Positions 26,071 to 55,400 of a stretch of DNA of 64,000 bases are shown one piece after another. The notes under the pieces are model-generated. The model saw only the letters and a program-made list of their open reading frames with translations, was not told the DNA's origin and did no database searches. Source of the stretch: a virus (Duplodnaviria > Heunggongvirae > Uroviricota > Caudoviricetes); the IMG/VR virus record IMGVR_UViG_3300027887_000330; one strand, given 5' to 3'. The translations under genes and the position numbers were made by a program. Each line of letters opens with the position of its first letter. Within the stretch, counting starts at the first letter, position 1.

Positions 26071-26414
26071 GATGCGTGGTGTGTGAAGAACCATCCAGGA
26101 CTCAGACCTTCAGTGTCTAAGCCTAGGTTTTTACATTGCTCCTGTATTGCTTCTGCCCATTCAGGTTTTACTGAGTCCCCGAATGTGTTGATGCAGATGG
26201 TTCCGTAGTAGTCGTCCAAGTCTTGGTAGGACTCTGAGATGTAAACTAGGTAGTTGTCATCGTCTGAGCAGCCTTCTACTATCTTGTCTCCGTCGTAGAG
26301 TTTGTCAAAGAAGTCATCTGGCTTCTCTCTTAGTCTATTCTCAGGGATAACTATACCCCAAGCTACGAATGAAGTGGTGCTCGAATTGGTTATAAATTTG
26401 CTGCGGTAGAACAT
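26067..26414 (-). CDS. MFYR-family paralog 2 (start MFYRSKFITNSSTTSF)
   Basis: Start ATG overlaps the stop of the upstream paralog (TGATG). C-terminal SPGWFF. Confidence 0.6.
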   Translation of the reverse strand: MFYRSKFITNSSTTSFVAWGIVIPENRLREKPDDFFDKLYDGDKIVEGCSDDDNYLVYISESYQDLDDYYGTICINTFGDSVKPEWAEAIQEQCKNLGLDTEGLSPGWFFTHHAS

Positions 26415-26728
26415 CAGCCGTCGTACCATCCGTCTTCGATGTAACCTATGGTATCATCCACATTGTTCCTCTTGGCCCATGCTTCCAGGGCTTTGTACTT
26501 TTCCTGCAGTTCATTGGCGGGGCCAAAGACTATCATTCCTTCTTTGTCTATGCTCACCGTCGGAAAGCCAATAGTGAGATACACCACGTCTCCGGGTGTC
26601 CAGTATTCCTGTATTCCTTCTGGTAGCCCCTCTTCAATTTTATCAAATGTTCCTCGGTGAACCTCTATTCCAAACGCTACCAAAGATGTGCTGCTTGAAT
26701 TCGTTACGAATAATTTCCTGTAAAACAT
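26414..26728 (-). CDS. MFYR-family paralog 3 (MFYRKLFVTNSSSTSL)
   Basis: Conserved N-terminus. C-terminal EDGWYDG. Confidence 0.6.
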   Translation of the reverse strand: MFYRKLFVTNSSSTSLVAFGIEVHRGTFDKIEEGLPEGIQEYWTPGDVVYLTIGFPTVSIDKEGMIVFGPANELQEKYKALEAWAKRNNVDDTIGYIEDGWYDG

Positions 26729-27180: not shown

Positions 27181-27435
27181 TTACCACTCCTTGTTTTCTA
27201 CCATCCTAACAATTTCCTCTACAGGAAGCTGCTTGTGGTCTTTGTAATCCTGTATTGCTCCCTCAATTTCATTTGTTATCCTGACGAGATCTGGTGTCAA
27301 GTGCTGTCCGTCATCATCCTCGTAGTTAGCGGCACAACGTATAAGGCGGCGGGCTTCTTTCAAGGATTTCAGGGCATCCAGTATCACGTAGGAACTTGAA
27401 CTTGAGTTCGTTATATGTTTTGGTCGATAAAGCAT
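27181..27435 (-). CDS. MFYR-family paralog 5 (start MLYRPKHITNSSSSSY)
   Basis: Internal Met gives the conserved N-terminus. The track ORF has a 17-codon upstream extension. Confidence 0.5.
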   Translation of the reverse strand: MLYRPKHITNSSSSSYVILDALKSLKEARRLIRCAANYEDDDGQHLTPDLVRITNEIEGAIQDYKDHKQLPVEEIVRMVENKEW

Positions 27436-27436
27436 C

Positions 27437-27784
27437 TTAATGTCCTGAGTTATAGAATCCCCAAGCAGGGCTGTCGTCCATGTCAAAGCCGTACTTGGTA
27501 ACTGCTTTCTTTAACTCTGTTAAAGCCGCCACTTCGTCAATTTCTTTGTGCCCAATAGGTTGCCAAATCCCATACTCGAACGCAGGTAACTCTGACGCCT
27601 TGATATAAAACAAAGCGGAGCCCTCATCCATGTATGTCCTGGCTATACCCACAGGGCCATCTTCATATATATCTGCTTCTGCTAGTTCATCATACCTTTT
27701 AGGATCATTCGCTCGGGCGTAAACTCCGTAGGCTATGAAACAAGTCGATGAGCTGTTCGTCACAAACTTTGCTCGGTAATACAT
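27437..27784 (-). CDS. MFYR-family paralog 6 (MYYRAKFVTNSSSTCF)
   Basis: Conserved N-terminus. C-terminal SPAWGF. Confidence 0.6.
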   Translation of the reverse strand: MYYRAKFVTNSSSTCFIAYGVYARANDPKRYDELAEADIYEDGPVGIARTYMDEGSALFYIKASELPAFEYGIWQPIGHKEIDEVAALTELKKAVTKYGFDMDDSPAWGFYNSGH

Positions 27785-28215
27785 TAAGTCCTCACATCAA
27801 TCGCTACTCTCCAAGCGGGTTCAGCTGTGCTGTCCCCATAAGCAGTAGCGGTAATTCCGTACTCCAGACAGAAGAGTTTTATTTTGTGCATCCACTCTTC
27901 TTCTTTTGCCTTGCTTTCTTGTAGGTGATCTATAGGGAGATCATCTACGCTGCCCTCTAGGGACCAATATGAATTATTGATATAGGCCATGCCGCTTTGG
28001 CAGTCAGGATCTATGTATAATCCTATGTCTCCCTTTAAGGTCTCTGCCCAGTCCCATAGTATTTGAGACTGATCTTCCCACGTAGCTTTGGTGAGCTCTT
28101 CCGGCGGGATTATTTTTTCTAGTATATTATTAGCTGAGTCTTCATCAAAATTAATTCCAAAGAAAATGAAACTCGTTGAAGAAGAGTTCGTTACGAACTT
28201 TTGTCTGTAAAACAA
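27784..28215 (-). CDS. MFYR-family paralog 7 (MFYRQKFVTNSSSTSF)
   Basis: Conserved N-terminus. C-terminal EPAWRVAI. Confidence 0.6.
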   Translation of the reverse strand: MFYRQKFVTNSSSTSFIFFGINFDEDSANNILEKIIPPEELTKATWEDQSQILWDWAETLKGDIGLYIDPDCQSGMAYINNSYWSLEGSVDDLPIDHLQESKAKEEEWMHKIKLFCLEYGITATAYGDSTAEPAWRVAIDVRT

Positions 28216-28605
28216 TTAGCGCTCCACGTGTATGGCTATCTGCCACGATGGCGTATGATAGGGGAGACCTTGGTTGTCACAAAGCTCCTTGATTGCCTGA
28301 TTCCATTCTTTATTCTTATCACGAGAAAATAATTTAAGTAAAATCTGGACCGGAAGAGCTTCGACTCCGCTTTCATCGAGGCCAATGTAGCTTTCTTTGG
28401 CATAAACCATAGCTCTTTCGACTTCCCAGCAATGATGTAGTCCCGCTGTAGACTCTTTATCACAGTCAAGCCTATAGGCTAGGTCTTGTAAAGACTCTCC
28501 TCCAGAGAATGATTCTCGCTCTACATCTTTTGTTCTGAATTCTATCCCATAAAAGATGAAACTCGTTGATGAACTGTTAGTTACAAATTTAGTCCTTAGG
28601 AACAT
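28216..28605 (-). CDS. MFYR-family paralog 8 (MFLRTKFVTNSSSTSF)
   Basis: Conserved N-terminus. C-terminal TPSWQIAI. Confidence 0.6.
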   Translation of the reverse strand: MFLRTKFVTNSSSTSFIFYGIEFRTKDVERESFSGGESLQDLAYRLDCDKESTAGLHHCWEVERAMVYAKESYIGLDESGVEALPVQILLKLFSRDKNKEWNQAIKELCDNQGLPYHTPSWQIAIHVER

Positions 28606-29322: not shown

Positions 29323-31302
29323 CTATAACGTAGCGTTGATGGCGTCCATGAGATCACCCTCGGACCAGATCAACACCTTATTGTCCTTGGCAAAAGTCAG
29401 TTTCTTGGGACCGGCTTCCTTGCCAGCTAAAAGTATGTTAACTTTAGCACTCAAGGAACCCACGCATTTTCCTCCGTACTGAGCTATAAGAGCTTTGAGA
29501 TCCTCGCGCGGGGTGCTGTGATTTCCTGTGACTACAAACACCTTTCCTTTCAGCTTGTCGCTGGTTACGGTAACCGAAGCGACTTCGTCAAACGTCATCA
29601 GGTGTAGCAGCCCGTTTACCAAGTTCCTGTTTACTTGCTGGCTGAAGAATTGTTTTGTGTTCTCTGCAATAGCCGTTCCAATACCGTCCAAAGATAAGAT
29701 GTCTTTAGTATCGGCGTCCATGACAGCTTCCATAGTCTTGAACTTCTCTGCGAATTGTTTTGAGACACTGCGCCCTACCAGAGGAATACCTAACGAATAG
29801 ATGAACCTATCCAGAGTAGTGGCCCTGGCTTTCTGTATGGCCGCTATGATCTTTGCTGCCAGCTTGTCCCCCATCCTCTCCAACCCTGCAAAATGCAAAG
29901 GCATAAGAGTAAACAGATCGTAGGGGCTTTGAATTATTTTCTTATTAACCAGCTGTTCGACGACCTTCTCGCCCAGCCCCTCTATGTTTAGGGCGTCCCG
30001 GCAGACGAAGTGTTTGATGCTCTCAGCCAGTTGTGCTATACATGTTTTATTGGTACAGCGTAAGGCGGCCTCTCCTGTAATCCTGACGGCTTTGCTTCCA
30101 CAGGCAGGGCAAGTATCAGGTATTATGAAAGGACCGTCAGTTTTCTTCTCAGAGACTTTAACGACCTCTGGGATAACATCCCCCGCCCGTTGGATTATAA
30201 CCTTGTCACCGACGTTGATGTTCTTGGCGTTCAACATGTCTTGGTTATGCAGCGTGGCCCTGGATATGGTGGCTTGTCCCACTTTCACCGGCACTAACTC
30301 GGCCACAGGAGTCAGAGTCCCTGTTCTGCCTACCTGCACTGTGATGCTCTTGACTGTTGTCTCTGCCTGTTCAGCCTTGAATTTGAGAGCGATGGCCCAC
30401 CGAGGTGCTCGGGAGGTGAAGCCCAGCTTCTCCTGTTCATCTGTTCGGTTTACTTTTATGACAGCTCCGTCTATATCATACGGGAACTTGGACCTGTCTT
30501 CCTCTATTTTCTTTACTTGGTCTACCAAACCATCCACAGACTTAACATGAAAGGTGACCGAAGACGGAATGTGCAGACTGTCAAGAAAGAGTTGCTTCGC
30601 CGTTTGACTATCTAAATCTCTCCCCTCTGCTAGTAACTCGTACCCGAAGAAGCGAAGTCTTCTCTTGGCCGCCTTTTGAGGGTCGAGATTTCTTACCCCT
30701 CCCGCTGCGGCATTACGAGGGTTGACATAGGTATCTTCTCCCTCAGCCTCTCGCTCTGCATTGATGGCTAAAAGGTCTTTTTTGTAAATAACAACTTCTC
30801 CGCGTACACGGAAGAACAGATTAGAGTCAAACTTACCTCCCACATCAAGAGGGATACCCCTGATTGTCCGTATGTTGTGGGTGACGTCTTCCCCAGTTTC
30901 CTTGTCGCCCCGCGTAGCAGCCAGCACAAACTTGTTAGCGTCATAAACCAGCTCTATCGCTAGTCCGTCGAGCTTAGGCTGCACCACAAAATCAGAAGAT
31001 CCAGTCTTCTTCGCCCACTTCCGCAGTTCGTCTAGGCTGAATACATTATCCAAGGACAGCATGGGGACGGCGTGCTTAACCTTCGTGAAGCTGCTTAGGG
31101 GGGCGGAACCCACGCGCTGGGTGGGGCTAGTGGAGACGATCAGATCAGGATAAGCCTTCTCCAGGTCCTGCAACTCCTTCATCTTCTCGTCGTATTCTTG
31201 GTCTGATATGGTAGGAGAGTCCAACGCGTGGTACTGATAATTGGCGTTGTCAATCTCCCCGCTGAGTTCCTTAATCCTCTTTTCAGCTTGCTCTTTTGTC
31301 AT
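29323..31302 (-). CDS. ligA: NAD-dependent DNA ligase LigA
   Basis: Adenylation motif KLDGLAIELVY (KxDG). OB domain. Cys4 zinc finger CPACGS...C..C. HhH region. C-terminal BRCT (VFVVTGNHSTPREDLKALIAQYGGK). 659 aa. Confidence 0.9.
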   Translation of the reverse strand: MTKEQAEKRIKELSGEIDNANYQYHALDSPTISDQEYDEKMKELQDLEKAYPDLIVSTSPTQRVGSAPLSSFTKVKHAVPMLSLDNVFSLDELRKWAKKTGSSDFVVQPKLDGLAIELVYDANKFVLAATRGDKETGEDVTHNIRTIRGIPLDVGGKFDSNLFFRVRGEVVIYKKDLLAINAEREAEGEDTYVNPRNAAAGGVRNLDPQKAAKRRLRFFGYELLAEGRDLDSQTAKQLFLDSLHIPSSVTFHVKSVDGLVDQVKKIEEDRSKFPYDIDGAVIKVNRTDEQEKLGFTSRAPRWAIALKFKAEQAETTVKSITVQVGRTGTLTPVAELVPVKVGQATISRATLHNQDMLNAKNINVGDKVIIQRAGDVIPEVVKVSEKKTDGPFIIPDTCPACGSKAVRITGEAALRCTNKTCIAQLAESIKHFVCRDALNIEGLGEKVVEQLVNKKIIQSPYDLFTLMPLHFAGLERMGDKLAAKIIAAIQKARATTLDRFIYSLGIPLVGRSVSKQFAEKFKTMEAVMDADTKDILSLDGIGTAIAENTKQFFSQQVNRNLVNGLLHLMTFDEVASVTVTSDKLKGKVFVVTGNHSTPREDLKALIAQYGGKCVGSLSAKVNILLAGKEAGPKKLTFAKDNKVLIWSEGDLMDAINATL

Positions 31303-34051: not shown

Positions 34052-34390
34052 TCAACCGCGCTCAAACTTACGTGTCTTTTCTTCCTTGGGCTTAAGTTCC
34101 TTACGCAGGTATTTGAGGGCCTTTTCAGGCATCATGGAGGGCATACAAGTGTAGACATCGAGTGATATGTAGTCATGTTCTGGACTATAATGAGCGCTCA
34201 TGTGCGATTCTGCGAGCATCACGATAGCTGTTGCACCCTGTGGCTCGAATTGGTGTCCCATATAATCGAGCACCTTACAGCCTGCAATCTTAGCCGTGTC
34301 TAACAACAGAGCTACCAAATCATACTCGTTGCTTATCCTCTCCGGATCGCAACCATACCAGTCTAGTAGTAGGTGTGTCCCCTTTTCCAT
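34052..34390 (-). CDS. speD: Pyruvoyl-dependent S-adenosylmethionine decarboxylase proenzyme (SpeD/SpeH type; the pyruvoyl arginine decarboxylase relative is not excluded)
   Basis: HLLLDWYGCD...LAESHMSAHYSPEHDYISLDVYTC matches the class 1 AdoMetDC core, including the ES self-cleavage site. Confidence 0.75.
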   Translation of the reverse strand: MEKGTHLLLDWYGCDPERISNEYDLVALLLDTAKIAGCKVLDYMGHQFEPQGATAIVMLAESHMSAHYSPEHDYISLDVYTCMPSMMPEKALKYLRKELKPKEEKTRKFERG

Positions 34391-36730: not shown

Positions 36731-37258
36731 TTAGTGGTGATTCATGGTGACTACACCACCAACACCTTTCTTTTCCAGTATGTTCACACTACCTGAGTGA
36801 TAGTCCATCGCGGAGGCGTAGGACCCTGAGTCGTCAGCATACTCAATGTGGACAATACGATAGCCGCGTTTTACGGCACCCAGTAATTTAGAATATGCTC
36901 TGATCCTCTGCTTTGTGTAGTAGCTAAAGCCGTGTTTTTCTCCTCGATCTTTAATAAGCCACTTCACCTCTTCTAAGATGCTGGCCCGGAGGCCGGGGAT
37001 ACTAAATTCCTCTAACCGTTCTTTGAAGTGGGGAGAGTTCGAGGCCTCCAGTTTGGCCATGGCTTCTTTGTCTTCTTGTTCTGTCCGGAGGAAATCCCTC
37101 AGTAAATTAAGGCTGTCTATTTTGAACCCGTCATCAGCAAAGATAGGTGTTAGGCCGATCTCGTCAAAGAATTCGTGGCTGATGTTTTGATTCTGTGGGA
37201 TAAAGAAATAGTAGCCTGAGCTTGAGGAATTGGTTACAAATTTAGGTCTGTAGAACAT
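36731..37258 (-). CDS. MFYR-family paralog 9 (start MFYRPKFVTNSSSSGY)
   Basis: Internal Met restores the conserved N-terminus. The same 45-nt DNA block sits at the start. Confidence 0.55.
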   Translation of the reverse strand: MFYRPKFVTNSSSSGYYFFIPQNQNISHEFFDEIGLTPIFADDGFKIDSLNLLRDFLRTEQEDKEAMAKLEASNSPHFKERLEEFSIPGLRASILEEVKWLIKDRGEKHGFSYYTKQRIRAYSKLLGAVKRGYRIVHIEYADDSGSYASAMDYHSGSVNILEKKGVGGVVTMNHH

Positions 37259-37268
37259 CACTTTATCC

Positions 37269-37592
37269 TTAACACTGGAATGAATACCAGCCAGAACTGT
37301 CTGTGCCGTATTCGATTTCATCTTCAGCGAAGTGACCTAAATATTCTATATCGTAGAAAATGGCACAACCCTTTCCAATTTTATCTCTCACTACAGCCTG
37401 TGCTCCTTCGTCCATATAATCGTCCAGCTCCTCTGCGGTTCCTCCAGTAAATATGGACTCTCCACAATGAGGGCATCTGAGATTACCGGGACTGTAATTC
37501 TTCATCTCCGTGGGGTAATTTTCAGGGTCTTTCTCCCATATTATCATACAGGAGGAGGAGGAGTTTGTCACAAATTTAGGTCTGTAATGCAT
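37269..37592 (-). CDS. MFYR-family paralog 10 (MHYRPKFVTNSSSSCM)
   Basis: Conserved N-terminus. C-terminal SSGWYSF. Contains CPHCGE. Confidence 0.55.
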   Translation of the reverse strand: MHYRPKFVTNSSSSCMIIWEKDPENYPTEMKNYSPGNLRCPHCGESIFTGGTAEELDDYMDEGAQAVVRDKIGKGCAIFYDIEYLGHFAEDEIEYGTDSSGWYSFQC

Positions 37593-38138: not shown

Positions 38139-39272
38139 TTAGGTCAATATAATAGGGACAGCATTGGTACCATTTCTGTATTCCAAAGCTGCCGCTACGG
38201 TAGTGGTCCTTGGTTCCACGCCCTCGATGTGCCAGGTTCCAGTGGACGGGTTTAACATTTTCAGATAGGGCCGATTTCGGTTAGCATCAATCGCCAGATT
38301 GACTAACTCATACTTGCCGTCGTCGCTCTTGTCTAGGAGGGTGGCCCCTAATTCTGCAAGTACCCTCTCAATTCCTATCTTTCTGACTAGCTCGCGCCGG
38401 ATCTCAGCGTTTCTAGTTTTTGTGATCATTTCGGCCTTCAGCTTTTCGGCTGGGGTAACAACGACCTGCTTCGATACCCGAACGTCATTCATGCAGTAGA
38501 TGCCCGACTTCAGTTTAGGAAAGTAAATTGCCGGGCCGTCCTCGCGGTGTAGGAAGTTCCTGCTGTCTATGTGTAGAACAGGTTTTTCCACCAGGATCAG
38601 CTTGTTGTTTATGAACAGGATCGAATACAAGTTCAAGGCTATTGTCTCACAGGCCTTGATGTATTTCAAAGTTGTCTTGGCGTCCTCGACATAGTACTTG
38701 CCAAGGGCATAGACCTTCGGGTAGTTCGCTACCCTAAGGGGCAGAACCGATCTGGAGTAGTAATTACGGGTTCTCCAGTCGGTTACGATAGGGGATTTCT
38801 TGTTCAGGTTGTACATCTTCCCAGAGATGGTCTTGGCCTGATTGACTAGTCTATTCACCCGTCCTATATAAAGCTGGGTGATGACCCCGATGTCGAGGAA
38901 AGTATCAAGGAGCTCTTGTGGCGGCTTTGGCTCCGCCCAGTAACCGAATAGGCCTGAGTGTAGAAGACTGTTGACAGTGGAAAGTTTGTTAGTAACTCCC
39001 CAATGAGCCTTATAATAGCTGGACATTTGTTCAGCTAGTGTAGCCTCTCCTACCTTTGCTGGCTCAAGGTCTTTGGTTTTGAGCTCCGAAAGCCATAGTA
39101 ATTTAGGCTTCTTGGGAACTACAGCGATGTCTGCCACAACCGTGCGAACAGCTTTAAACACATCCGATTCGCTGTCCGTCTTATCCCCGATCAGCCGCCC
39201 CTTGAAAAATAAGGCTTGATCCTGAATTTCCTTCATCAATACTTTGTCTTTAGGGTCTAATTTTACATCCAT
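38139..39272 (-). CDS. Hypothetical protein coupled to the radical SAM gene
   Basis: 377 aa. Start overlaps the stop of the radical SAM gene. Confidence 0.5.
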   Translation of the reverse strand: MDVKLDPKDKVLMKEIQDQALFFKGRLIGDKTDSESDVFKAVRTVVADIAVVPKKPKLLWLSELKTKDLEPAKVGEATLAEQMSSYYKAHWGVTNKLSTVNSLLHSGLFGYWAEPKPPQELLDTFLDIGVITQLYIGRVNRLVNQAKTISGKMYNLNKKSPIVTDWRTRNYYSRSVLPLRVANYPKVYALGKYYVEDAKTTLKYIKACETIALNLYSILFINNKLILVEKPVLHIDSRNFLHREDGPAIYFPKLKSGIYCMNDVRVSKQVVVTPAEKLKAEMITKTRNAEIRRELVRKIGIERVLAELGATLLDKSDDGKYELVNLAIDANRNRPYLKMLNPSTGTWHIEGVEPRTTTVAAALEYRNGTNAVPIILT

Positions 39273-40312
39273 TAAATCGTTCGCTCCGTTTTTTCACATG
39301 GGTTTATGCCAGGCAACACATGACAACTATGACATAGGTCGTTAACATCACAGCCTGGGCACGCCGTGGTCACTTTTTCTCGGTAAGGTTGGAGTTTCTC
39401 TTTCCATATCTCCTCAAAAGAGTGGTCATGTAAACTAAACTTGTCTTTGAGATTGAAAGAGCAGGGAGATACGGTGAGATCCTCCCCAACAAACACGCTG
39501 AAGCAACCACTGTCACAAGGTCCGAGTGTATATCTCGGAAGGTCTTGGCGGGGCACAATGGACATAAGGGAGGGTGAAAAGCAACTATCAATTCCTACGC
39601 TTACCTTTCCCTTATAATTCCTCAGGGATTTTACAAACCTGAGTTTCTGGTCTCGATGGGGATGCTGTTCCCAGCTCCCCCGCCCGATGGGTTTGTGCAT
39701 CAAACAGATACACGAATACAGAGGGTATTTCCCGCCGAACAAACCCTCTCCCTGTGCTGCTATGTCTAGTTCGTGGCCCCACTCATCAATGTGTGCCTTG
39801 TCTAAAACGACATGGATAGCGGGCTCTATCCCTGCCTCTAGCAGCCGTTCAACCTCCTTTAACGCCGTCCGTCTGTTGTGCATCGAAATTGCTACAGCTC
39901 CAGCATAGCGTTTGGTAGCCTCTAGTATCTCGTCTGTCATGTCTACGCCATTTGAAGTGTAGCTGGGCGGTATTCCTTTGTCATGAGCGATCCTCAGGAT
40001 CTCGATGAATTCGGGGTGGTGCTGCGGGCTGCCGCCCCCAATTGCAACTTGAAGAACGTGAGGACTCATAGCGTCTAATACTGCCGCGAAATCCGACGGA
40101 CTCATGTGGTGACTCTTACTAGGGTCGCTCTCCCTGTAACAATACTCACAGTTAAGAGGACAATAGTCAGTAATATGAATGTCCGCTAGCTCCGGACCGT
40201 GCAGAGAAAATTTTGGATCTGAATAACCGGGTTTTTCCTTCCTTAAGAACTCTCCTGTTTCCACATCGAAAAAAACCACATAAGTTCCGTAATCAATGAC
40301 TTTGATTGGCAT
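39272..40312 (-). CDS. Radical SAM enzyme with C-terminal SPASM-like auxiliary Fe-S domain
   Basis: CPLNCEYC (CxxxCxxC) near the N-terminus. C-terminal CFSVFVGEDLTVSPC then CPGCDVNDLCHSC then C fits the SPASM pattern. Confidence 0.7.
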   Translation of the reverse strand: MPIKVIDYGTYVVFFDVETGEFLRKEKPGYSDPKFSLHGPELADIHITDYCPLNCEYCYRESDPSKSHHMSPSDFAAVLDAMSPHVLQVAIGGGSPQHHPEFIEILRIAHDKGIPPSYTSNGVDMTDEILEATKRYAGAVAISMHNRRTALKEVERLLEAGIEPAIHVVLDKAHIDEWGHELDIAAQGEGLFGGKYPLYSCICLMHKPIGRGSWEQHPHRDQKLRFVKSLRNYKGKVSVGIDSCFSPSLMSIVPRQDLPRYTLGPCDSGCFSVFVGEDLTVSPCSFNLKDKFSLHDHSFEEIWKEKLQPYREKVTTACPGCDVNDLCHSCHVLPGINPCEKTERTI

Positions 40313-40509: not shown

Positions 40510-41073
40510 TTAGTCCTCCTCGTCAAATTCCTCTGTGAAGTCCTCGTCGAGCCTGACCTCTCCGGGAGTCACTATCAGAGTCATGTGCTCAATAGAAAGG
40601 TTCTCTATAGTGATGTTGACCACCTGGGTGGGCCGTGGCTCGAAAGGTTTTAAGGCTGTGGCCCCCAGCACAAAACGGCCGGGATCGTCGCCTTCCACGT
40701 CATAATCTGGGCTTAGACCCCCAGCCGCTGCCTTAGGGGGGCTGTCAGTCTTGGCCTCATCCGGAGACATGGCCTTCTGGTTTGTCTTCGTGTAAGTTGC
40801 CGCGTTGGTCCCTGAGACATGATACAAAGTTGCCTCTGTATTAGATCCGTTAGGAAGTTTCACATCAATTGTGGTTGTTGTGTACTTGAATCCGTATTGT
40901 GGGGCCATGTTAACCACATTGGTCCGTAGAAAGTCTGCCACGTCTCTGTTCCGGACCCAGTCTCCTCTCTGTTTAAGAGAATTGGCTATGTCTACAGAGG
41001 TAAACATCTTTCCTCTCTGCATCCATTGCCCTGCTTCTACTCTAATCTTGCTTGCATCTGCTGGTGAACACAT
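40510..41073 (-). CDS. Hypothetical protein with acidic C-terminal tail
   Basis: 187 aa. Confidence 0.4.
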   Translation of the reverse strand: MCSPADASKIRVEAGQWMQRGKMFTSVDIANSLKQRGDWVRNRDVADFLRTNVVNMAPQYGFKYTTTTIDVKLPNGSNTEATLYHVSGTNAATYTKTNQKAMSPDEAKTDSPPKAAAGGLSPDYDVEGDDPGRFVLGATALKPFEPRPTQVVNITIENLSIEHMTLIVTPGEVRLDEDFTEEFDEED

Positions 41074-41594: not shown

Positions 41595-42095
41595 TCAATT
41601 TTCCTTTACCCTCTCCCAAGAAGCGATCTTCATGTCACTGTTATCTACACTGAAGGCCGAGTTTATTTCTACCCCTCTACTCCAGCCGGGAAGGTCCCCG
41701 TTTCCTCCGCTGAGGTGCTCAAGAGTTTTTGAAACCTCAAGATACTTTTGCTTATCTCTCTTAGCTAATTTTCCTAGGAGTAGCCGTATCTCATGGTTAA
41801 CTTGTCCGCGAGATATTGTCATTGGATACAGGTGTCTTTCTCTCCTGTGTATCAGGGAGCGATCAAACTTATATCCTCTGTGAGTTCCCTCCCAATAGAT
41901 CTCCATGAGATAACAACCTATAGCGGAGAGTGGCTCGCTGTGGGTTTTAAATCTTTCCATCTGCGGATGAGTGCCATAGGATAGTTTGTATGGCGGGCCA
42001 GCTATTAATATCCTTTGTGCATGTAGAGCTTCCCGCCACAATCCCAATAGGCCCATCCTGTCAAGAAGTTCCGGATGAATGGACCAAAGTCTCAT
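41595..42095 (-). CDS. Possible pyrimidine-dimer DNA glycosylase (T4 endonuclease V/DenV-like)
   Basis: N-terminal MRLWSIHPELLDRMGLLGLWREALHAQ resembles the Pyr_excise family N-terminus. Weak. Confidence 0.35.
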   Translation of the reverse strand: MRLWSIHPELLDRMGLLGLWREALHAQRILIAGPPYKLSYGTHPQMERFKTHSEPLSAIGCYLMEIYWEGTHRGYKFDRSLIHRRERHLYPMTISRGQVNHEIRLLLGKLAKRDKQKYLEVSKTLEHLSGGNGDLPGWSRGVEINSAFSVDNSDMKIASWERVKEN

Positions 42096-42502
42096 TATGC
42101 TGCCTTTTTCTTGCCCCTCTTCTTGGCTCCTGTAGCTTCTACCGCGGGGGTTGGGGGTTCCGGCTCAACCACAGCCACAACCACTGGTTCTGCAACTGCT
42201 TCTGCTTCACCTTCACCCTCTGCTGAGGGCCAGTTGGGGAGCTCTGTAATCTCTGTGATGCCTCGGACTGTCCAACGATGCTTGCAGCCTTCAGCTTGAC
42301 AGATAGCTCTCACCCCAATAAGATCTCCGTATTCTGGTTCCTGTTCTGGGCCGATCTTTCCGTCTTCGTCCTGTCTCCACACTCGGTATTCTTCGGATAC
42401 TTCTAGTAATTTGATATCTTTGCTCTTACACTTAGGGCAAATGATATCCGTTCGGATGTTATGTCTGGCCATATATTCTGGCTCTCCTTTAGTAGTTGTC
42501 AT
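42095..42502 (-). CDS. Zinc-ribbon protein with Ala/Gly/Glu-rich C-terminal tail
   Basis: CPKCKS...CQAEGC. 135 aa. Confidence 0.4.
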   Translation of the reverse strand: MTTTKGEPEYMARHNIRTDIICPKCKSKDIKLLEVSEEYRVWRQDEDGKIGPEQEPEYGDLIGVRAICQAEGCKHRWTVRGITEITELPNWPSAEGEGEAEAVAEPVVVAVVEPEPPTPAVEATGAKKRGKKKAA

Positions 42503-42739
42503 CGTAGGGAGGGCGCATATTTACAATATCTATAGGATGCTCTCCCGTTTCTTCTCCCCACTGAGATCTTGGGGCAAGTCGTTGTCCTGCCCAGTTGTAG
42601 TCGGCCCCACATATATCACATGTATTTGTGAAGCCATAACATGCTAATTGCTCTCCACAGCACTCAATGACTGTAGGTTCTTTAACCAATTTGCCGTCTT
42701 CTCCCACATAACTCTGGCCTCTTTGTATCACTCTTGACA

Positions 42740-44143
42740 TTACTCTTCCAGTTCTATGAGGTATGTTACTGTGCATTGCTCCAATTTGTAGACAATGAAT
42801 TCGTCGTTGTATAGGCTGCCCAGTCGTGCGAGGGCAGAAATACTGTGGTAACCTGACGGGGCACCCTGTGTTTTGGAGGAGCCCACCTCATAGGTTTTAC
42901 CCATAGCGAATTTACATCTCAAAAGGAACGTGTTTTTGAATGTGTTTCTCCTACCAGACCATCCCCCTACGCTGTAGTTTAATGACTTAGTAGATGAATT
43001 AGCGCCATAGATACCATTCCCAAACATTCTCCCGGTGACGTGCCCGGCAGAAACCGGAGGTATAATGAGGCCGCCCAGCATGATGCTGAGTAAATTAGCG
43101 TTCTGAGATCCGTGAAAGAATTCTTGTGTGTTTCCATATTTGGCTTCGGCCTTTTCGTACCTTTCCCGCTCCTTCCCAATCTTTATTATGTAGGCGTTCT
43201 TTACTTTCCACCTATCCAGATGGGCGTGTTTCTTTGTTCCGTTAACCGTATCCACCAAGTCTTTGTAGACTTTTGTTTTCTTGTCTATAGGCTCTATGTC
43301 AGTTTCGAATCCGCTGAACTGCTTAGAGGCATTGGTATTGGTAGTCATACCCATCTTTACGGACGCCTCTAGCTGGTCTAGCAAGTCATATTCTTCAGCG
43401 AGTTTAACATCGGTTATGATCCAGTCGTCTCTCGTTATTTTTCTTCCAAACTGATGGGGGATCTTACTGTAATAGAAGTTATTACTCATCCGGGTGATTT
43501 CTTTGTCCGGATCTATCTGGCCATCCTCAGACATCATATCCTTCAGATCATTCAGCGCCCGTCGAGCGTCATTAACCGTGTTAATGGTTACTGGCCCCAG
43601 CGCGGTCTCAAGTCCGTTTGCGGTAAGCGTGATGCTGGAGAGTGACGTAACTTTATGTATGTTTTCTTGTGCGAACTGCTCGATCAGCCGCTGGACATCT
43701 GGGTCAAATCTAGACGCTTCGTTAATTATCTCCTTGGCAGAAAGTTGAGTTGCTACGTCTTTAGTTGCCTTGCCCCTTACGTTAGGGGAACCTACTGTAG
43801 GACTAACCAACTCTACTAACTCATAATTCTCTCGGCGTGAAGACCCATCTTCTTCTTTTATGTTCTTTCCCTTGAGCTTCTTCTTAACTATGGAATCAAA
43901 TTCACTCTCCGCATTATAGAGAGCAGGCCATGGCCCGCGCTCGTCATAGACGCTGCTGGTATTTATTCTCCCATAGTGTGTAAAAAGTCTGTAATTCCCT
44001 GAGGCCGGGTCATGCTGTATCTCTATGGAGTAGAACTTATTATTATTCCCCTCGATATTTCCACAGCATAAAACCGTATGCTTAATTGTTTCTGTATAAG
44101 GACCGGGGCTGTCATCATACAGTTTCGTTGCTTTTACTGCCAT
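42740..44143 (-). CDS. Poly(ADP-ribose) polymerase homolog (WGR domain, helical domain and PARP catalytic domain)
   Basis: N-terminal WGR-like FYSIEIQHDPASGNYRLFTHYGRIN. Catalytic FHGSQNANLLSIMLGGLIIPP...VTGRMFGNGIYGANSSTKSLNY...YNDEFIVY aligns with the PARP1 H-G-S, G-I-Y and YNEYIVY blocks, giving an apparently intact H-Y-E triad. Confidence 0.8.
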   Translation of the reverse strand: MAVKATKLYDDSPGPYTETIKHTVLCCGNIEGNNNKFYSIEIQHDPASGNYRLFTHYGRINTSSVYDERGPWPALYNAESEFDSIVKKKLKGKNIKEEDGSSRRENYELVELVSPTVGSPNVRGKATKDVATQLSAKEIINEASRFDPDVQRLIEQFAQENIHKVTSLSSITLTANGLETALGPVTINTVNDARRALNDLKDMMSEDGQIDPDKEITRMSNNFYYSKIPHQFGRKITRDDWIITDVKLAEEYDLLDQLEASVKMGMTTNTNASKQFSGFETDIEPIDKKTKVYKDLVDTVNGTKKHAHLDRWKVKNAYIIKIGKERERYEKAEAKYGNTQEFFHGSQNANLLSIMLGGLIIPPVSAGHVTGRMFGNGIYGANSSTKSLNYSVGGWSGRRNTFKNTFLLRCKFAMGKTYEVGSSKTQGAPSGYHSISALARLGSLYNDEFIVYKLEQCTVTYLIELEE

Positions 44144-44409
44144 TTGTTACCAGTTCCAAGCCCTGTGTTGTTCTAGTTGCTCATTCATATCCATAGAGAG
44201 GTCGTAAACCTCTTCTATTCTCTGCATGTTTGACATCCTGAATTCTTTAGCCTTTTCCCGAGGATCTATACCCTTTTCTACCTCAACTGGGTAATCGTCA
44301 TAGTCATAGGTGTCACACACTATGATAAGGTGTGAATATTTACCTGCTCTTACTGCTTCCTCAAACCACCGTTTTATGTCTTCATATGAAGCTGCCACTG
44401 TGTTCCCTT

Positions 44410-44438
44410 AAAAGAAAAGGGGGCCCCGTAGGGCCCCC
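44410..44438 (-). terminator. Intrinsic terminator after the SPFH gene
   Basis: GGGGGCCC-CGTA-GGGCCCCC followed on the minus strand by UUUUCUUUU. Confidence 0.65.
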
Positions 44439-44445
44439 TGTTTCG

Positions 44446-45714
44446 TCACTTAGACTTGGGTTCCGGAGTCATTCCTATGTCGAAGCCCAACGCCTTCATG
44501 CTCATAAGCTGTAACATCTGTTGCGAGCTCATGAATTCCTTGTCAGTGTCACCACCGGCACCCATGATAGTGCGTGGCACTAGGCGCGTCTTGAAAGCTT
44601 CAGCCCAGGCGAGCTGTGTTTCTTTCCAGGCGTCGATCTTCATGGCCTGATAGTTATCTGCTTTCATCTTCAACTCGCGGGCCTTAGATTCACCCTCCGC
44701 TATCAAAATAGCAGCGAGTTTAGTCTGCTCGGCGGACTGTTTATCGAGTTCAGCTACCTTCAGCTTTTGGGCCGCGTCAATTTCCGCAACCTCTTTCTTC
44801 TGGTTAGCTAGAACAACAGCCCTTGCCTTCTTGGTTTCCTCTTCCCACTTTGCCTGGATTGCGTTGGCTTCCCCCTTGGCCTTTTCGGTCAGCTTATTCT
44901 GCTCAGCCTTCTGAGCTTCGGCGCGGGCGGTTTCCACGGACATGATCGCTTCTTGCTGCTTGTCGATCTGTTCGGCTACCTTGGGGCTATACTTAAACTT
45001 TTTCACTTCAAAGTTTGAGAGCGTAATCCCCGTGCCCTCCAATGGGTTGAACATATGCTGTGGTTTCCCGTCTTTGTCTCTCTTAATAACCTTTACGTAG
45101 CGGGAAACTTTTTCGCCAGTAATCGGGTCGTCCACTTTTTGCCATTCTTCAGAGGTAGCAAACATCCCCTTCTGGATCTGATCATACGACCACGTAATGA
45201 AGTCTGGTCTCTTCTCAGAATAGCTCTGCCGTGCTGACATTAAGTTAGCTGACATGCTCAACGAGTTTCGTAATGTAGGTAAGACAAGCTTTGTCATAAC
45301 TTCGTCAGGACTCGTGTAGCCTTTGTCGCTGATTAACTTCATCGCATCTTTATCAGAGGAAGGAAAGATTACTCGACAAGTCCCAGAGATCCAGCACAAT
45401 GAGCCGTCATTGAATCTCACCTCGATGGAGTTATCCTTGTTGACGTCGTCCTTGTGGTCCTTATCATCTGTGAAGAAGAATGTTTTTTCCTTGGGCCAGT
45501 TCCATACGTGGCCTATAGGAAACCACAAGCCGGGCCTCATATGTGCGTCAACTGTCCCGGTAAACCACTGCTGGCTGATCTGGTAGTAACCGGCGGGCAC
45601 CACGTTGTAGATCCCACCTATGATTGTGAGTCCTGATACTAGGACAACGATCCCTATTACCGCCCACTTAATTGCTCTCCACGGAAGCTTGGGAAGCCTA
45701 ATTTCCTCGTCCAT
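44446..45714 (-). CDS. SPFH/band-7 (stomatin/HflK-like) membrane protein with long coiled-coil
   Basis: N-terminal TM helix, SPFH-like core, then an Ala/Glu/Lys-rich coiled coil (AIQAKWEEETKKARAVVLANQKKEVAEIDAAQ...). Confidence 0.65.
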   Translation of the reverse strand: MDEEIRLPKLPWRAIKWAVIGIVVLVSGLTIIGGIYNVVPAGYYQISQQWFTGTVDAHMRPGLWFPIGHVWNWPKEKTFFFTDDKDHKDDVNKDNSIEVRFNDGSLCWISGTCRVIFPSSDKDAMKLISDKGYTSPDEVMTKLVLPTLRNSLSMSANLMSARQSYSEKRPDFITWSYDQIQKGMFATSEEWQKVDDPITGEKVSRYVKVIKRDKDGKPQHMFNPLEGTGITLSNFEVKKFKYSPKVAEQIDKQQEAIMSVETARAEAQKAEQNKLTEKAKGEANAIQAKWEEETKKARAVVLANQKKEVAEIDAAQKLKVAELDKQSAEQTKLAAILIAEGESKARELKMKADNYQAMKIDAWKETQLAWAEAFKTRLVPRTIMGAGGDTDKEFMSSQQMLQLMSMKALGFDIGMTPEPKSK

Positions 45715-50232: not shown

Positions 50233-50835
50233 CTAATGCTTTTTGAAAACTACGTCTTTGTCAATTTCATATATGTGCCAACATGCATAACATTCATCAC
50301 AACCTTTATTACAATCAAATCTTGCATGCATGTATCTGTCTTCGCGTCCATCTTCCATCCAAGCGATACGTTTAAATTCTTTCGGTAATGCGTACCCTGG
50401 CCAAGCCGAGGGAAGAATCGTTAAGTTAAACGGGCATTTGTTGATAGGCAATGTGTATCGTTTGGTGAAAGCTAAAAATCTGGTGTTAGGGTAATCGTCA
50501 GCGAGTCTTATCATTTCGTTAAAATACTTCTCGTCAGGTATGTCACCATCTGTATGAAATCTAAAATAGTGCGGCTTTTTCTGATCTAAGAACTCGCGGA
50601 TGTTTCTGAAATACTTGTGTGGCTGTGTTAACCATACTCTCCAGTTATGGAGGCGGGCGTCCCTTACATTGGGATACGCTCTCCATGCCTTGAGAGAATA
50701 ACACAGATTTTCTTCCGCACACGGTACTCCCTTTACGCACGACAAAATCGGCGGGAGAGAGACGTTGGGGATTTTGCCTATCTTTTGATTGCCCTCACTG
50801 ATCACAACCGGATCTCGTGTAGTATAGAGGGTCAT
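50233..50835 (-). CDS. Hypothetical protein with C-terminal Cys cluster
   Basis: CNKGCDECYACWH at the C-terminus. The promoter-like motif is 68-82 nt upstream. Confidence 0.45.
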   Translation of the reverse strand: MTLYTTRDPVVISEGNQKIGKIPNVSLPPILSCVKGVPCAEENLCYSLKAWRAYPNVRDARLHNWRVWLTQPHKYFRNIREFLDQKKPHYFRFHTDGDIPDEKYFNEMIRLADDYPNTRFLAFTKRYTLPINKCPFNLTILPSAWPGYALPKEFKRIAWMEDGREDRYMHARFDCNKGCDECYACWHIYEIDKDVVFKKH

Positions 50836-54734: not shown

Positions 54735-55400
54735 CTATTTTACGGACTCATATGAAGCCATATAAGTAGCCAGTTCCTTGTCATAGTCAGCAAATTCCAT
54801 TGCTGCCTCTTTAGCCTTGTTGAACTTGTGGTCGGAAACCGTAGCTGTGACCTCTTTGATGAATTCATGGATGAAGTACCAACTCTTATTGAGCACTATT
54901 GAATTCACCGTAGGTCCGCTGATCCCAAACACCGATCCTATGGCGTCGTAATCGGCAAGGTCTTCTTTGGCTAGTCGGCTAACCACGTCTCGTAGGGAAA
55001 GCACCCCTAAAGCATCCATCTTGGGAACAACTTCATTTGCCATGATCTTCGTGTAGGCGGCTCGTTTATGGGTTACCCAACGTAGATTAGCGGGCTGGAT
55101 ATTCCACTTGTTTCCGTCTGACGGAAGAGCAAATCCTTCTCTTGGTTTGAAAGGAGAACCGGCCTGTAATACGGCCAACACCACCCTACCAACCTGTTGA
55201 AATTTACCTTTTCCAAGACCAGCCTGCCCTTCATTCTTGGGCAGAACAGCAATTACTGTTCCATTTATTTTGCTACGGAAAGTAGGGATTGCTTTCCCCG
55301 TGCTAATCCGTATCAGTGCCCCGCTCTTCTTATGTACACGGGTATCAATAGCTGGGGCTTCGACCCAGTCGCTCTGGGACGTTTGTTGAGTTGAACTCAT
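54735..55400 (-). CDS. Hypothetical protein
   Basis: 221 aa. Confidence 0.45.
   Translation of the reverse strand: MSSTQQTSQSDWVEAPAIDTRVHKKSGALIRISTGKAIPTFRSKINGTVIAVLPKNEGQAGLGKGKFQQVGRVVLAVLQAGSPFKPREGFALPSDGNKWNIQPANLRWVTHKRAAYTKIMANEVVPKMDALGVLSLRDVVSRLAKEDLADYDAIGSVFGISGPTVNSIVLNKSWYFIHEFIKEVTATVSDHKFNKAKEAAMEFADYDKELATYMASYESVK

Follow-up and report, generated by a model that had tools for sequence, protein, structure and literature searches.

The sequence analysed here, the window, is a 64-kb (64,000-nucleotide) stretch of DNA classified as viral. It carries, on the minus strand, a gene for a homolog of the poly-ADP-ribose polymerases (PARPs), embedded in a string of small co-oriented genes. 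The features discussed below are listed in Table 1.

Table 1. Features of the PARP locus and of the NAD+-dependent ligase gene of the window.
Feature	Position	Strand	Description
NAD+-dependent DNA ligase (LigA), full-length	29323..31302	-	Pfam Nlig-Ia, adenylation, OB, Zn, HhH and BRCT
Conserved PARP partner, 187 aa	40510..41073	-	Residues 1-100 winged-helix; remainder a disordered tail ending in an acidic stretch
T4 endonuclease V-type pyrimidine-dimer DNA glycosylase	41595..42095	-	Pfam Pyr_excise, E 3e-17
Small ORF directly downstream of PARP	42489..42776	-	JGI product 83 aa; weak Phage_gp86 match, PHROG 3207 E 5e-4
PARP homolog gene	42740..44143	-	467 aa plus stop; ATG start, TAA stop; order WGR-HD-ART; from ORF list and codons
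ADP-ribosyltransferase (ART) catalytic domain	42743..43315	-	Residues 277-467; Pfam PARP
Helical regulatory (HD, autoinhibitory) domain	43316..43714	-	Residues 144-276; Pfam PARP_reg, E 5e-12; aligned to PARP1/2 HD
Family-specific linker motif S-P-T-V-G-S-x-N-[IV]-R-G-K	43769..43804	-	Residues 114-125, between WGR and HD
WGR domain	43814..44143	-	Residues 1-110; Pfam WGR
83-aa ORF	44147..44398	-	First gene after terminator; stop codon 3 nt before PARP start
Intrinsic-terminator-like hairpin	44418..44439	-	9-bp stem, 8 G-C pairs, T-rich tail; consensus match only

All three Pfam domains of the PARP homolog score above their gathering cut-offs (GA): WGR at residues 26-92 (44.0 bits; GA 22), PARP_reg at 144-260 (46.6 bits; GA 26.8) and the PARP catalytic domain at 293-437 (79.9 bits, E 2e-22; GA 26.7). 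The best match among PDB sequences is human PARP2, both for the single sequence (phmmer, E 8e-23, residues 24-442) and for a family profile (E 6e-44); E-values of this order exclude chance as the explanation for the sequence matches. The AF2 model (pLDDT 83.9, pTM 0.78) places predicted HD helices at residues 148-168, 187-203, 215-227, 245-264 and 272-276, and a Foldseek search with this model finds PARP2 and PARP1 on DNA breaks as the best matches (7aeo, 6x0l, 7s6h and 4dqy; E ~1e-27). The first-pass annotation, made from the sequence alone, had described a full-length WGR-PARP homolog in which a WGR-like module and a helical domain precede the catalytic domain. The Pfam matches and the AF2 helices bear this out, and the structural matches are to PARP2 and PARP1 chains with the order WGR-HD-ART, not to a toxin mono-ADP-ribosyltransferase (mono-ART) without HD.

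The intact H-Y-E catalytic triad and the motifs announced in the same annotation (HGS, VTGxMFGxGIY and YNDEFIVY) are likewise present. Inspection of the codons places the triad at H344 (43112-43114, in FFHGS), Y379 (43007-43009, in VTGRMFGNGIY) and E448 (42800-42802, in LYNDEFIVY), together with K386 and Y390. In a profile alignment E448 is in register with the catalytic glutamate of PARP2 ('LyndEfivY' versus 'LNYNEYIVY'). The triad is invariant in all 66 close relatives and is retained in 58-59 of 60 diverse viral relatives; K386 and Y390 are also invariant among the relatives. Taken together, these features suggest that the window protein is an active ADP-ribosyltransferase akin to the DNA-dependent enzymes PARP1, PARP2 and PARP3. 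The toxin-type mono-ARTs (diphtheria/ExoA-like, DarT, Alt/Mod) are a different class: the best matches of the window protein are HD-bearing PARPs and its triad is H-Y-E, not R-S-E. Among them, T4 Alt, ModA and ModB are, like the window PARP, phage-encoded enzymes that use NAD+, but they belong to the R-S-E, cholera-toxin-like clade, lack WGR and HD, and modify host proteins with single ADP-ribose units, without regulation by DNA breaks (PMC8120803).

The core of human PARP2 has the same domain order and is the best match in both sequence and structure, although the two proteins are only ~21% identical. Equivalents of K903 and Y907 and nine of 11 WGR DNA contacts are, like the triad, common to the window protein and human PARP1/2/3, whereas the disordered N-terminal region, zinc fingers and BRCT domain of the human enzymes are absent from it. 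Also setting it apart from PARP2 are a Y-G-R sequence in place of W-G-R (Y57-G58-R59), a loop ~30 residues shorter before the catalytic glutamate, and the linker motif PTVGSxN[IV]RGK. Within this linker P115, G118, S119 and N121 show little or no variation among the 66 family members, and of 60 diverse viral PARPs 45-46 retain G118 and S119; residues 114-125 have no counterpart in PARP1/2, and AF2 confidence drops across the stretch.

The WGR domain is informative as to how the enzyme might be regulated. From the published list of DNA contacts of the PARP2 WGR domain (PMC6294510), HMMER alignments identify N33, N35, K36, Y38, Y57, R59, K89 and Y107 as equivalents in the window protein. Nine of the 11 contacts are kept, including the equivalents of R153 and of Y201, the residue that senses the 5'-phosphate and is required for activation by it in PARP2 (PMC6294510); W151 is replaced by tyrosine, and contacts Q159 and K179 are not conserved. 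All 66 family sequences have the equivalents of N127, N129, K130, R153, K183 and Y201, and the last of these is present in all of 59 diverse viral sequences as well. The probable DNA-break sensing put forward in the first-pass annotation gains support from this conservation, and by analogy with PARP2 we infer that the enzyme is most likely activated by a DNA nick or break.

The nature of the product is a separate question. The acceptor loop of the window PARP spans 14 residues (S434 to E448), and in 56 of 60 viral PARPs its length is 13-15, compared with ~44 in PARP2; the long PARP1/2/3-type loop before the catalytic glutamate is absent. Chain elongation and branching may therefore differ from those of PARP1/2, and with so short a loop the product may be either poly- or mono-ADP-ribose. 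Nor is the H-Y-E triad proof of polymer synthesis: PARP3 and PARP4 have it, yet are mono-ARTs. It is quite possible that the window protein, in spite of its triad, transfers single ADP-ribose units only, as PARP3 and PARP4 do, and makes no polymer. HMMER alignments to PARP1/2/3 break at residues 437-442, whereas those to PARP4, named 'protein mono-ADP-ribosyltransferase' in the PDB, and to the tankyrases, which have a similarly short loop, continue unbroken through E448 to residue 464. Tankyrases, however, are PAR makers. Tankyrases and PARP4 are much less similar overall to the window protein (E 1e-9 to 1e-13) and, unlike it, have no WGR; tankyrases also lack HD. Bacterial WGR-PARPs with the same triad also weigh against a mono-ART: HaPARP of Herpetosiphon aurantiacus and CdPARP of Clostridioides difficile CD160, which consist of WGR (with or without PARP_reg) and PARP, make PAR in vitro, HaPARP in a DNA-dependent manner (PMC8120803, PMC5966428, PMC4245714). 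Most bacterial PARPs are reported to have no recognisable PARP_reg (PMC8120803), in contrast to the window protein, in which this domain is above the Pfam cut-off.

Although the first-pass annotation held PARPs to be rare outside eukaryotes, this was overstated: the phage PARP has at least 475 metagenomic homologs, and PARP loci number 60 in IMG/VR and 120 in GTDB (bacterial) genomes. The exact window protein is annotated by JGI as PARP 2/3/4 and falls into PHROG 23333 (E 8e-36). To the same PHROG family belong the annotated PARPs of Xanthomonas phage XacN1 (BBA65562.1), Xoo-sp13, Cellulophaga phage phi4:1, Klebsiella phages 05F01 and FBKp34, and Stenotrophomonas phages CM1 and RAS14; they are only 23-33% identical to the window PARP (tblastn) and their neighbours differ, being a vWA protein in XacN1 and an unrelated radical SAM protein in 05F01. 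No near-identical DNA to the window was found in GenBank phages, and cellular relatives in GTDB are at most 31% identical to its PARP. One apparent intein, in homolog P0004, proved to be an N-terminal extension of 290 aa with a LAGLIDADG match, not an insertion in the PARP. Three surveys have already described phage PARPs (Perina 2014, Iyer 2021 and Iyer 2022; PMC4245714, PMC7824862, PMC9503650), and as these enzymes are known from genome surveys the window PARP is in itself not very novel; the literature yielded no experimental characterisation of any phage PARP.

The gene lies in a transcription unit that a pattern scan separates from an upstream SPFH gene by a terminator-like hairpin. The 83-aa ORF that precedes it has no family match and is not conserved at other PARP loci. 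Downstream, the ATG of the JGI-called ORF overlaps the PARP stop codon (TAATG), an arrangement that suggests translational coupling of the two genes; a homolog of this ORF, 75% identical, adjoins PARP in one of the closest relatives (L003). The endonuclease V-type glycosylase is part of the same co-oriented gene string, two genes downstream of PARP and between PARP and the partner, but is not conserved beside PARP at other loci. The PARP gene is set in a region of replication and repair genes, which encode PolA, a PD-(D/E)XK exonuclease, RNR, ThyX, UDG, RNase HII, Rad52, SSB, a DHH protein, a helicase and the NAD-dependent ligase that the first-pass annotation had correctly noted as co-encoded. 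LigA is, like PARP, a consumer of NAD+ that acts at nicks. In one related phage clade it lies ~2-6 kb from PARP in 19 of 22 loci. As candidates for conserved partners, the 83-aa, 95-aa, 135-aa and 171-aa ORFs, Pyr_excise, SPFH and DUF6745 were rejected: none of them recurs beyond the closest relatives (L003 and L004), and some not even there, apart from a single additional case of SPFH near PARP (L069). Because no neighbour other than the winged-helix partner is conserved, the link between PARP and repair genes rests on the layout of a single genome.

The partner lies 1.7 kb from PARP in the window, with four genes between. Its N-terminal domain is predicted by AF2 (pLDDT 81-90) to adopt an H1-b1-H2-H3-b2-wing-b3 topology, similar to known winged-helix domains. 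No Pfam or PHROG family match was found, a partner profile matched none of the PDB sequences, and GenBank phages gave no match. The partner accompanies PARP in 36 of 60 viral loci by BLAST (38 of 60 by HMM) and lies beside it in 11 of 80 cellular loci, always on the same strand and 30-223 bp away, in bacteria of four phyla. The pair is found in seven of 13 PARP clades in phages as well as in bacterial chromosomes, in one case on a 5.7-Mb contig, and a reciprocal test of the association held at all 27 testable loci. Over the whole library the partner family comprises ~610 representative clusters. For the partner pattern scan we used the clade alignment (A4), the alternatives being too diverse (A3) or too narrow (A2). 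An apparent fusion of PARP and partner (L125) was discarded; it is an out-of-frame ORF in high-GC DNA, and the true partner starts 30 nt after PARP. The pairing of PARP with this protein in phages and bacteria was previously unnoticed and is the new observation of the present analysis. Human PARP1/2 operate in the context of HPF1 and histones; the PARP of this prokaryotic virus has a winged-helix partner gene instead.

An ADP-ribose eraser of the macrodomain or PARG type, for which the first-pass annotation had advised a search elsewhere in the genome, did not come to light: Pfam detects no macrodomain, PARG, ARH3 or NADAR in any ORF of the 64-kb window, comparisons of the Macro and NADAR proteins of related loci with the window (tblastn, HMM and hhalign) were negative, and none was found in the ~10 kb upstream, a left extension in which a glycan-biosynthesis island lies. 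Two kinds of spurious match arose during these searches. 'Serglycin' matches were artefacts of the GS linkers with which small ORFs were concatenated for Pfam, and weak, recurrent tblastn matches of Macro proteins to the GP88 ORF (50233-50835) were noise (hhalign probability 0.7%). In contrast to the window, PARP has erasers beside it in many relatives, Macro in 28 viral loci and NADAR in 22; some cellular relatives have the same partner or a Macro gene adjoining PARP, with Macro directly downstream in one bacterial clade, and the neighbours of PARP in one related phage clade include Macro, NADAR and an NAD ligase. The presence of erasers beside PARP in relatives argues that, in this family, the modification is real and reversible.

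On the basis of these comparisons we consider it somewhat probable that the window PARP is a nick- or break-activated ADP-ribosyltransferase acting in DNA replication, recombination and repair of a large uncultured phage. If it works as PARP2 does, then the WGR domain would clamp a nick or break bearing a 5'-phosphate, and the clamped break would destabilise the autoinhibitory HD and so open the NAD+ site. ADP-ribose would then be moved from NAD+ onto the enzyme itself, nearby proteins or the DNA end; the winged-helix partner, with its disordered, acidic-ended tail, is the prime candidate acceptor, although it could also be a plain transcription regulator. The role of such a reaction, we infer, may be to mark or regulate the nicks and breaks that arise from phage replication, recombination and repair, with PARP acting upstream of, or competing with, the phage NAD+-dependent ligase.

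More tentatively, PARP and the winged-helix protein may constitute a hitherto undescribed two-component, DNA-break-responsive ADP-ribosylation module, one that several bacterial phyla have in common with huge phages. Bound to DNA, the partner would be the dedicated acceptor of the module or would lend it specificity, and so take in prokaryotes the part that histones or HPF1 have for PARP1/2. With this module, LigA and, where a clade has them, Macro and NADAR erasers, phages would govern how nicks in their genomes are processed. Phage and bacterial PARPs are regarded as near to the ancestral forms of the eukaryotic DNA-damage PARPs. A compact protein of 467 aa with full PARP2-type sensing and autoinhibition, from a family large enough for good structure prediction, would accordingly be a tractable model both for the origin of WGR-HD-ART allostery and for ADP-ribosylation in phage replication; the partner is a concrete and testable candidate substrate or adaptor. 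Together with the PARP-Macro-NADAR-LigA neighbourhoods, it ties these PARPs to NAD+-centred phage-host conflict systems, at present a busy field of research.

Such systems bring to mind another role, in which the enzyme serves host takeover or counter-defence by ADP-ribosylating RNA polymerase, translation factors or defence proteins (compare T4 Alt/ModA/ModB and AcrIF11), or by draining or redirecting host NAD+, with WGR as a DNA tether only. Modification of the host is the function that existing surveys prefer for phage ARTs (PMC7824862), PART is named there as one of the most frequent viral ARTs of conflict systems (PMC9503650), and the Macro and NADAR neighbours seen in relatives are typical counter-defence genes, for example against DarT. 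We nevertheless regard this role as doubtful. The HD and the 5'-phosphate-sensing residues are under strong purifying selection, and a constitutive host-modifying toxin has no need of them; head and packaging genes are not close to the gene, which has no MuF fusion either; and the same PARP-partner pair is found in bacterial chromosomes. Were the enzyme merely another host-modifying ART, it would add little to the existing surveys.

An unlikely variant, compatible with action at phage nicks and breaks and not exclusive of it, is that the enzyme mainly modifies nucleic acid. It would cap DNA ends or nicks that have 5'- or 3'-phosphates with ADP-ribose, as PARP2 and PARP3 can in vitro, and the cap would protect them from exonuclease attack or hold up ligation until its removal by an eraser. 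The invariance of the 5'-phosphate-sensing tyrosine is in keeping with this, as is the position of NADAR a few kb from PARP in its 22 viral loci, along with LigA and two metallophosphoesterases; however, characterised NADARs act on base-linked ADP-ribose (DarT-like) and not on the phosphate-linked form (PARPs), and the window itself has yielded neither NADAR nor Macro.

The label 'phage PARP' would be wrong if the window were part of a cellular genome or of some other mobile element. Capsid, terminase and tail genes are absent from the 64 kb, the exact contig was not found in IMG/VR, the island upstream is devoted to glycan biosynthesis, and close homologs are labelled as Nanoarchaeia, Nitrosarchaeum, Altiarchaeales or Chloroflexota MAGs. 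Against this stand the gene content typical of large phages (PolA, RNR, ThyX, Rad52, exonuclease and SSB), a cluster of six tRNAs, HNH and LAGLIDADG endonucleases, matches to PhageMetallopep, GP88, Phage_gp86 and PHROG families, and dense co-oriented small ORFs with an eight-member paralog family. In addition, all IMG/VR PARPs at least 39% identical to that of the window are on contigs of 52-545 kb classified as viral. A cellular or other non-phage source therefore appears improbable, and the phage origin, which rests on gene content and viral relatives, is the probable one.

Least probable of all is a toxin-antitoxin-like or abortive-infection pair in which the partner neutralises or represses a toxic ART: many ARTs are toxins of such systems (PMC8120803), little space separates the two genes in bacteria, and some partners have a weak MazE/AbrB match in their C-terminal part (L005, E 6e-4; P0173), but the window partner has no AbrB-like domain and is set apart from PARP by four genes, the PARP has its own autoinhibitory HD, and in phage clade 12 the pair sits amid LigA, Macro and NADAR genes and not in an isolated two-gene cassette. 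A final resemblance between loci, that of the radical SAM gene following PARP in Klebsiella phage 05F01 to one near the window partner, is a coincidence, the two having no significant similarity.

The PARP gene of the window (467 aa, ATG to TAA) lies exactly where the first-pass annotation had placed it, and it encodes the full-length arrangement claimed there: a WGR domain, a helical regulatory domain (HD; Pfam PARP_reg) and a catalytic ADP-ribosyltransferase (ART) domain, all three well over the curated Pfam gathering cut-offs (GA) by which domain calls were judged. Of the PDB sequences, human PARP2 matches best, both for the single sequence (E 8e-23, residues 24-442) and for a profile of 66 family members (E 6e-44); PHROGs assigns the protein to phrog_23333 (E 8e-36). 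On this sequence evidence chance similarity to PARPs is excluded. An AlphaFold2 model built from the alignment of the 66 family sequences (A1; mean pLDDT 83.9, pTM 0.78) agrees with the Pfam calls, showing an N-terminal beta-rich WGR, a helical bundle at residues 148-276 and a C-terminal ART. Its top Foldseek matches in the PDB are WGR-HD-ART chains of PARP2 (7aeo, 6x0l) and PARP1 (7s6h, 4dqy) at E ~1e-27, from complexes with DNA breaks. Because these lead the search and no toxin-type mono-ADP-ribosyltransferase occurs among the 50 matches listed, we reject the toxin fold without a helical domain. The observation holds, with support for the interpretation first given to it.

All 66 family members retain the catalytic residues H344, Y379 and E448, along with the residues matching PARP1 K903 and Y907, and the H-Y-E triad is kept in 58-59 of 60 far more diverse viral homologs. 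The profile alignment sets 'LyndEfivY' over PARP2 'LNYNEYIVY', which identifies E448 as the catalytic Glu; the triad is thus intact with its Glu in register, as first noted. Between a conserved Ser and this Glu, PARP1, PARP2 and PARP3 carry ~30 residues (the acceptor loop) more than the window PARP, where the distance is 14 residues (13-15 in 56 of the 60 viral homologs), whereas tankyrase and PARP4 chains align with it unbroken across the region. Tankyrases synthesise polymers; PARP3 and PARP4 add mono-ADP-ribose only. That the window enzyme attaches single units rather than chains is quite conceivable, if not the outcome we would expect.

On nicked DNA the PARP2 WGR makes contacts through N127, N128, N129, K130, Y132, W151, R153, Q159, K179, K183 and Y201; activity requires R153 and N127, and 5'-phosphate-dependent activation requires Y201 (Obaji et al., PMC6294510). 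HMMER alignments give the window equivalents, in the same order, as N33, N34, N35, K36, Y38, Y57, R59, V65, I85, K89 and Y107. All 66 family members share N33, N35, K36, R59, K89 and Y107, the last of which also occurs in 59 of 59 diverse viral PARPs; the Y38 position is always aromatic, and the W151 equivalent is Tyr in 65 of 66 (motif Y-G-R); only the Q159 and K179 contacts are lost. Conservation of these contacts, the Y201 and R153 equivalents included, gives good indirect backing to the break-sensing proposed in the first-pass annotation: the WGR would recognise 5'-phosphorylated nicks or breaks in the manner of PARP2. Between WGR and HD lies a motif, S-P-T-V-G-S-x-N-[IV]-R-G-K, invariant in the close family and without counterpart in PARP1/2, which could serve for automodification, for docking of the partner or for contact with DNA.

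The statement that PARPs are rare outside eukaryotes proved too strong. A word-seeded search with the window PARP returned at least 475 proteins at E <=1e-5, the best 120 of them sharing its ~450-490-aa architecture at 42-83% identity. We found 60 PARP loci in IMG/VR, many on contigs of 200-550 kb, and 120 in the GTDB species set (Armatimonadota, Cyanobacteria, Acidobacteriota, Myxococcota, Planctomycetota, Actinomycetota and large plasmids). Among cellular relatives, identity to the window PARP does not exceed 31%, except on two MAG contigs (41-43%) that probably represent phage binned wrongly. Relatives also appear in 16 GenBank phage records, several of which already carry a PARP annotation. 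Phage PARPs were listed by Perina et al. 2014 (PMC4245714) and noted in jumbo phages by Iyer et al. 2021 (PMC7824862), PART/PARP is among the most frequent viral ARTs (Iyer et al. 2022, PMC9503650), and the bacterial HaPARP and CdPARP synthesise PAR in vitro (PMC8120803, PMC5966428); for phage PARPs, a literature text search turned up no experiments. JGI and Logan contain wetland-sediment metagenome contigs (longest 78.7 kb) with the identical protein, which JGI calls 'poly [ADP-ribose] polymerase 2/3/4'. Since the protein is annotated and surveys describe its class, of which it is a divergent member, the PARP itself is modestly novel. What is added to the known class is a conserved winged-helix partner, writer-eraser-ligase neighbourhoods in related phages, the short acceptor loop and the linker motif.

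The partner's conservation is the main new result. When ORFs within 10 kb of PARP were clustered for the 60 viral loci and the window, the most widespread companion was the family of the window's 187-aa ORF, present near PARP in 36 (BLAST clustering) or 38 (HMM) of the 60 and in 7 of 13 PARP clades (set at 40% identity). It lies on PARP's strand in every viral locus, and downstream except in L040 and L041. With the same HMM it is detected in 11 of 80 cellular PARP loci, from Kofleriaceae, Blastocatellia (including a 5.7-Mb contig), Armatimonadota relatives and Chloroflexota, on the same strand with an operon-like spacing of 30-223 bp. Searching reciprocally from the partner, PARP was found within ~6 kb in 27 of 27 testable viral loci, upstream in all but one, although these loci are not independent, as most come from one clade. 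The N-terminal domain carries the signature LFT[AS][LV]D[VI][SA]N..K … RHR.V … LYHP (window ORF; homologs P0121-P0281) and defines a family of ~610 representative clusters without a Pfam model. The C-terminal half differs among members: disordered with an acidic end in the window (…DEDFTEEFDEED), a weakly AbrB/MazE-like module in others (L005, P0173), and occasionally swapped for Phage_pRha and ANT regulator domains (P0235) or an ACP-like PP-binding domain (P0250, P0253). No partner-PARP fusion was found among the loci examined; an apparent one in L125 was rejected as an out-of-frame artefact. Tentatively, PARP and partner may form a two-component system common to phages and bacteria.

Other genes recur beside PARP in one phage clade of 22 loci, whose PARPs are ~26-28% identical to that of the window: a Macro-domain gene in 19, NADAR in 16 (Pfam E 7e-34) and the NAD+-dependent ligase LigA in 19, together with two metallophosphoesterases and a 101-aa ORF. 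In one clade of huge-phage contigs (L025, L031, L034, L038, L044-L048, L051, L059, L061 and others) a conserved cluster, about -6 to +5 kb around PARP, comprises LigA, metallophosphoesterase, 101-aa ORF, PARP, Macro, NADAR, winged-helix partner and a second metallophosphoesterase. The arrangement has the look of a full module of writer, eraser and ligase built around NAD+/ADP-ribose. A Macro gene lies directly 3' of PARP in a Myxococcota/Planctomycetota clade. The window has neither Macro, NADAR, the metallophosphoesterase pair nor the 101-aa ORF, and its ligase, correctly reported as co-encoded, is distant. The suggested search for a macrodomain or PARG-like eraser found none in the 64 kb or in ~10 kb upstream, where glycan-biosynthesis genes lie.

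From the observed architecture, fold, residue conservation and gene linkage we infer activation, substrates and role. The best-supported reading, held with modest confidence, is a nick- or break-activated ADP-ribosyltransferase acting in phage replication, recombination and repair. WGR would recognise 5'-phosphorylated nicks or breaks, and its binding would relieve HD autoinhibition; ADP-ribose from NAD+ would then be attached to the enzyme itself, to DNA-bound proteins such as the partner, or to a DNA end, so regulating nick and break processing during these events in interplay with the ligase, an enzyme that works at the same 5'-phosphorylated nicks with the same cofactor. An effector that modifies the host or counters its defences is a doubtful alternative. 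Nucleic acid as the principal substrate is unlikely, and would be compatible with the regulatory reading. A toxin-antitoxin-like role for PARP and partner is very improbable.

By its gene content the window appears to be the part of a large phage genome devoted to replication and nucleotide metabolism. It encodes PolA (at most 29% identical to anything in GenBank phages), RNR and ThyX; PD-(D/E)XK exonuclease, UDG, RNase HII, Rad52, SSB, helicase, a DHH/DHHA1 protein, LigA and a T4 endoV-type glycosylase; and, typical of phages, six tRNAs, HNH and LAGLIDADG endonucleases, PhageMetallopep, GP88 and Phage_gp86 matches, a Ro60-like protein and many small co-oriented ORFs. GenBank phages offer no near DNA match to the window. 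A phage origin is highly probable, short of certain because virion genes are absent from the 64 kb and IMG/VR does not contain the contig; a non-phage source is improbable.

Features of the window, with the PARP gene string in order of transcription
Feature	Position	Strand	Remark
SPFH/Band-7 protein	44446-45714	minus	long coiled-coil tail; directly upstream of PARP
Terminator-like hairpin, strong	44439-44418	minus	3' of SPFH/Band-7 gene, before PARP string
Gene 1, 83-aa ORF		minus	stop 3 nt before PARP ATG
Gene 2, PARP	42740-44143	minus	
WGR	residues 26-92		44 bits, GA 22
Linker motif	43769-43804	minus	residues 114-125
PARP_reg	residues 144-260		46.6 bits, GA 26.8
PARP catalytic	residues 293-437		79.9 bits, GA 26.7
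Gene 3, small ORF		minus	ATG overlaps PARP stop (TAATG)
Gene 4, 135-aa ORF		minus	
Gene 5, pyrimidine-dimer glycosylase		minus	
Gene 6, 171-aa ORF		minus	
Gene 7, 187-aa partner	40510-41073	minus	
Gene 8, 62-aa ORF		minus	
Gene 9, radical SAM enzyme (gene 10, DUF6745, follows)	39272-40312	minus	
LigA	29323-31302	minus	11.4 kb downstream of PARP
Homing-endonuclease-type genes (this row and next: LAGLIDADG, HNH)	23555-24490; 54735-55400	minus	free-standing
Homing-endonuclease-type gene	22619-23158	plus	free-standing
Eight paralogous ORFs	25720-26094; 26067-26429; 27181-27486; 27437-27784; 27784-28215; 28216-28605; 36731-37321; 37269-37592	minus	about 100-196 aa
RNase HII	15991-16719	plus	second copy: L063 9107-9736
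Ro60-like protein (TROVE + vWA)	60793-62235	minus	
tRNA genes	59651-59851; 60491-60751; 62305-62391	minus	four Leu, one Ser, one Pro
Glycan/sugar-nucleotide island	233-2666	plus	also L063 1-9000
S-adenosylmethionine decarboxylase	34052-34390	minus	
Papain-family C1 peptidase	11155-11898	plus	
ClpB-like AAA+ protein	20480-22510	plus	
PilZ-domain protein	58653-59156	minus	

An SPFH homolog (L069 3515-4957; 24% identity, E 2e-19) also precedes PARP in a Planctomycetaceae MAG that has a Macro-like gene as well; with two cases only, the adjacency may be coincidence. In a 77%-identical PARP relative (P0004) the gene model is extended at its N-terminus by 290 aa that include a LAGLIDADG match, probably from a homing endonuclease gene that either went in just upstream or was joined on by the gene caller; an intein was rejected, the extra residues being N-terminal to PARP. 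The second RNase HII lies on L063, the same phage just upstream of the window, and the two enzymes with UDG, Rad52 and the endoV-type glycosylase make an unusually rich repair repertoire.

The eight paralogous ORFs share an N-terminal motif, Y-R-x-K-[FH]-[VI]-T-N-S-S-[ST]-[ST]-x-[FYM], diverge beyond it and have no Pfam match; they form an expanded phage gene family. The Ro60-like gene sits inside the cluster of six tRNA genes. As bacterial Ro60 partners Y RNAs that carry tRNA-like modules, a Y-like RNA that annotation has missed may be present close by; at gathering thresholds Rfam reports tRNAs only. The large glycan island, with nucleotidyltransferases, GHMP kinase, SIS isomerase, epimerases, dehydratases, TylF-type methyltransferases, a sulfotransferase and a large glycosyltransferase, is an unusual auxiliary metabolism for a phage.
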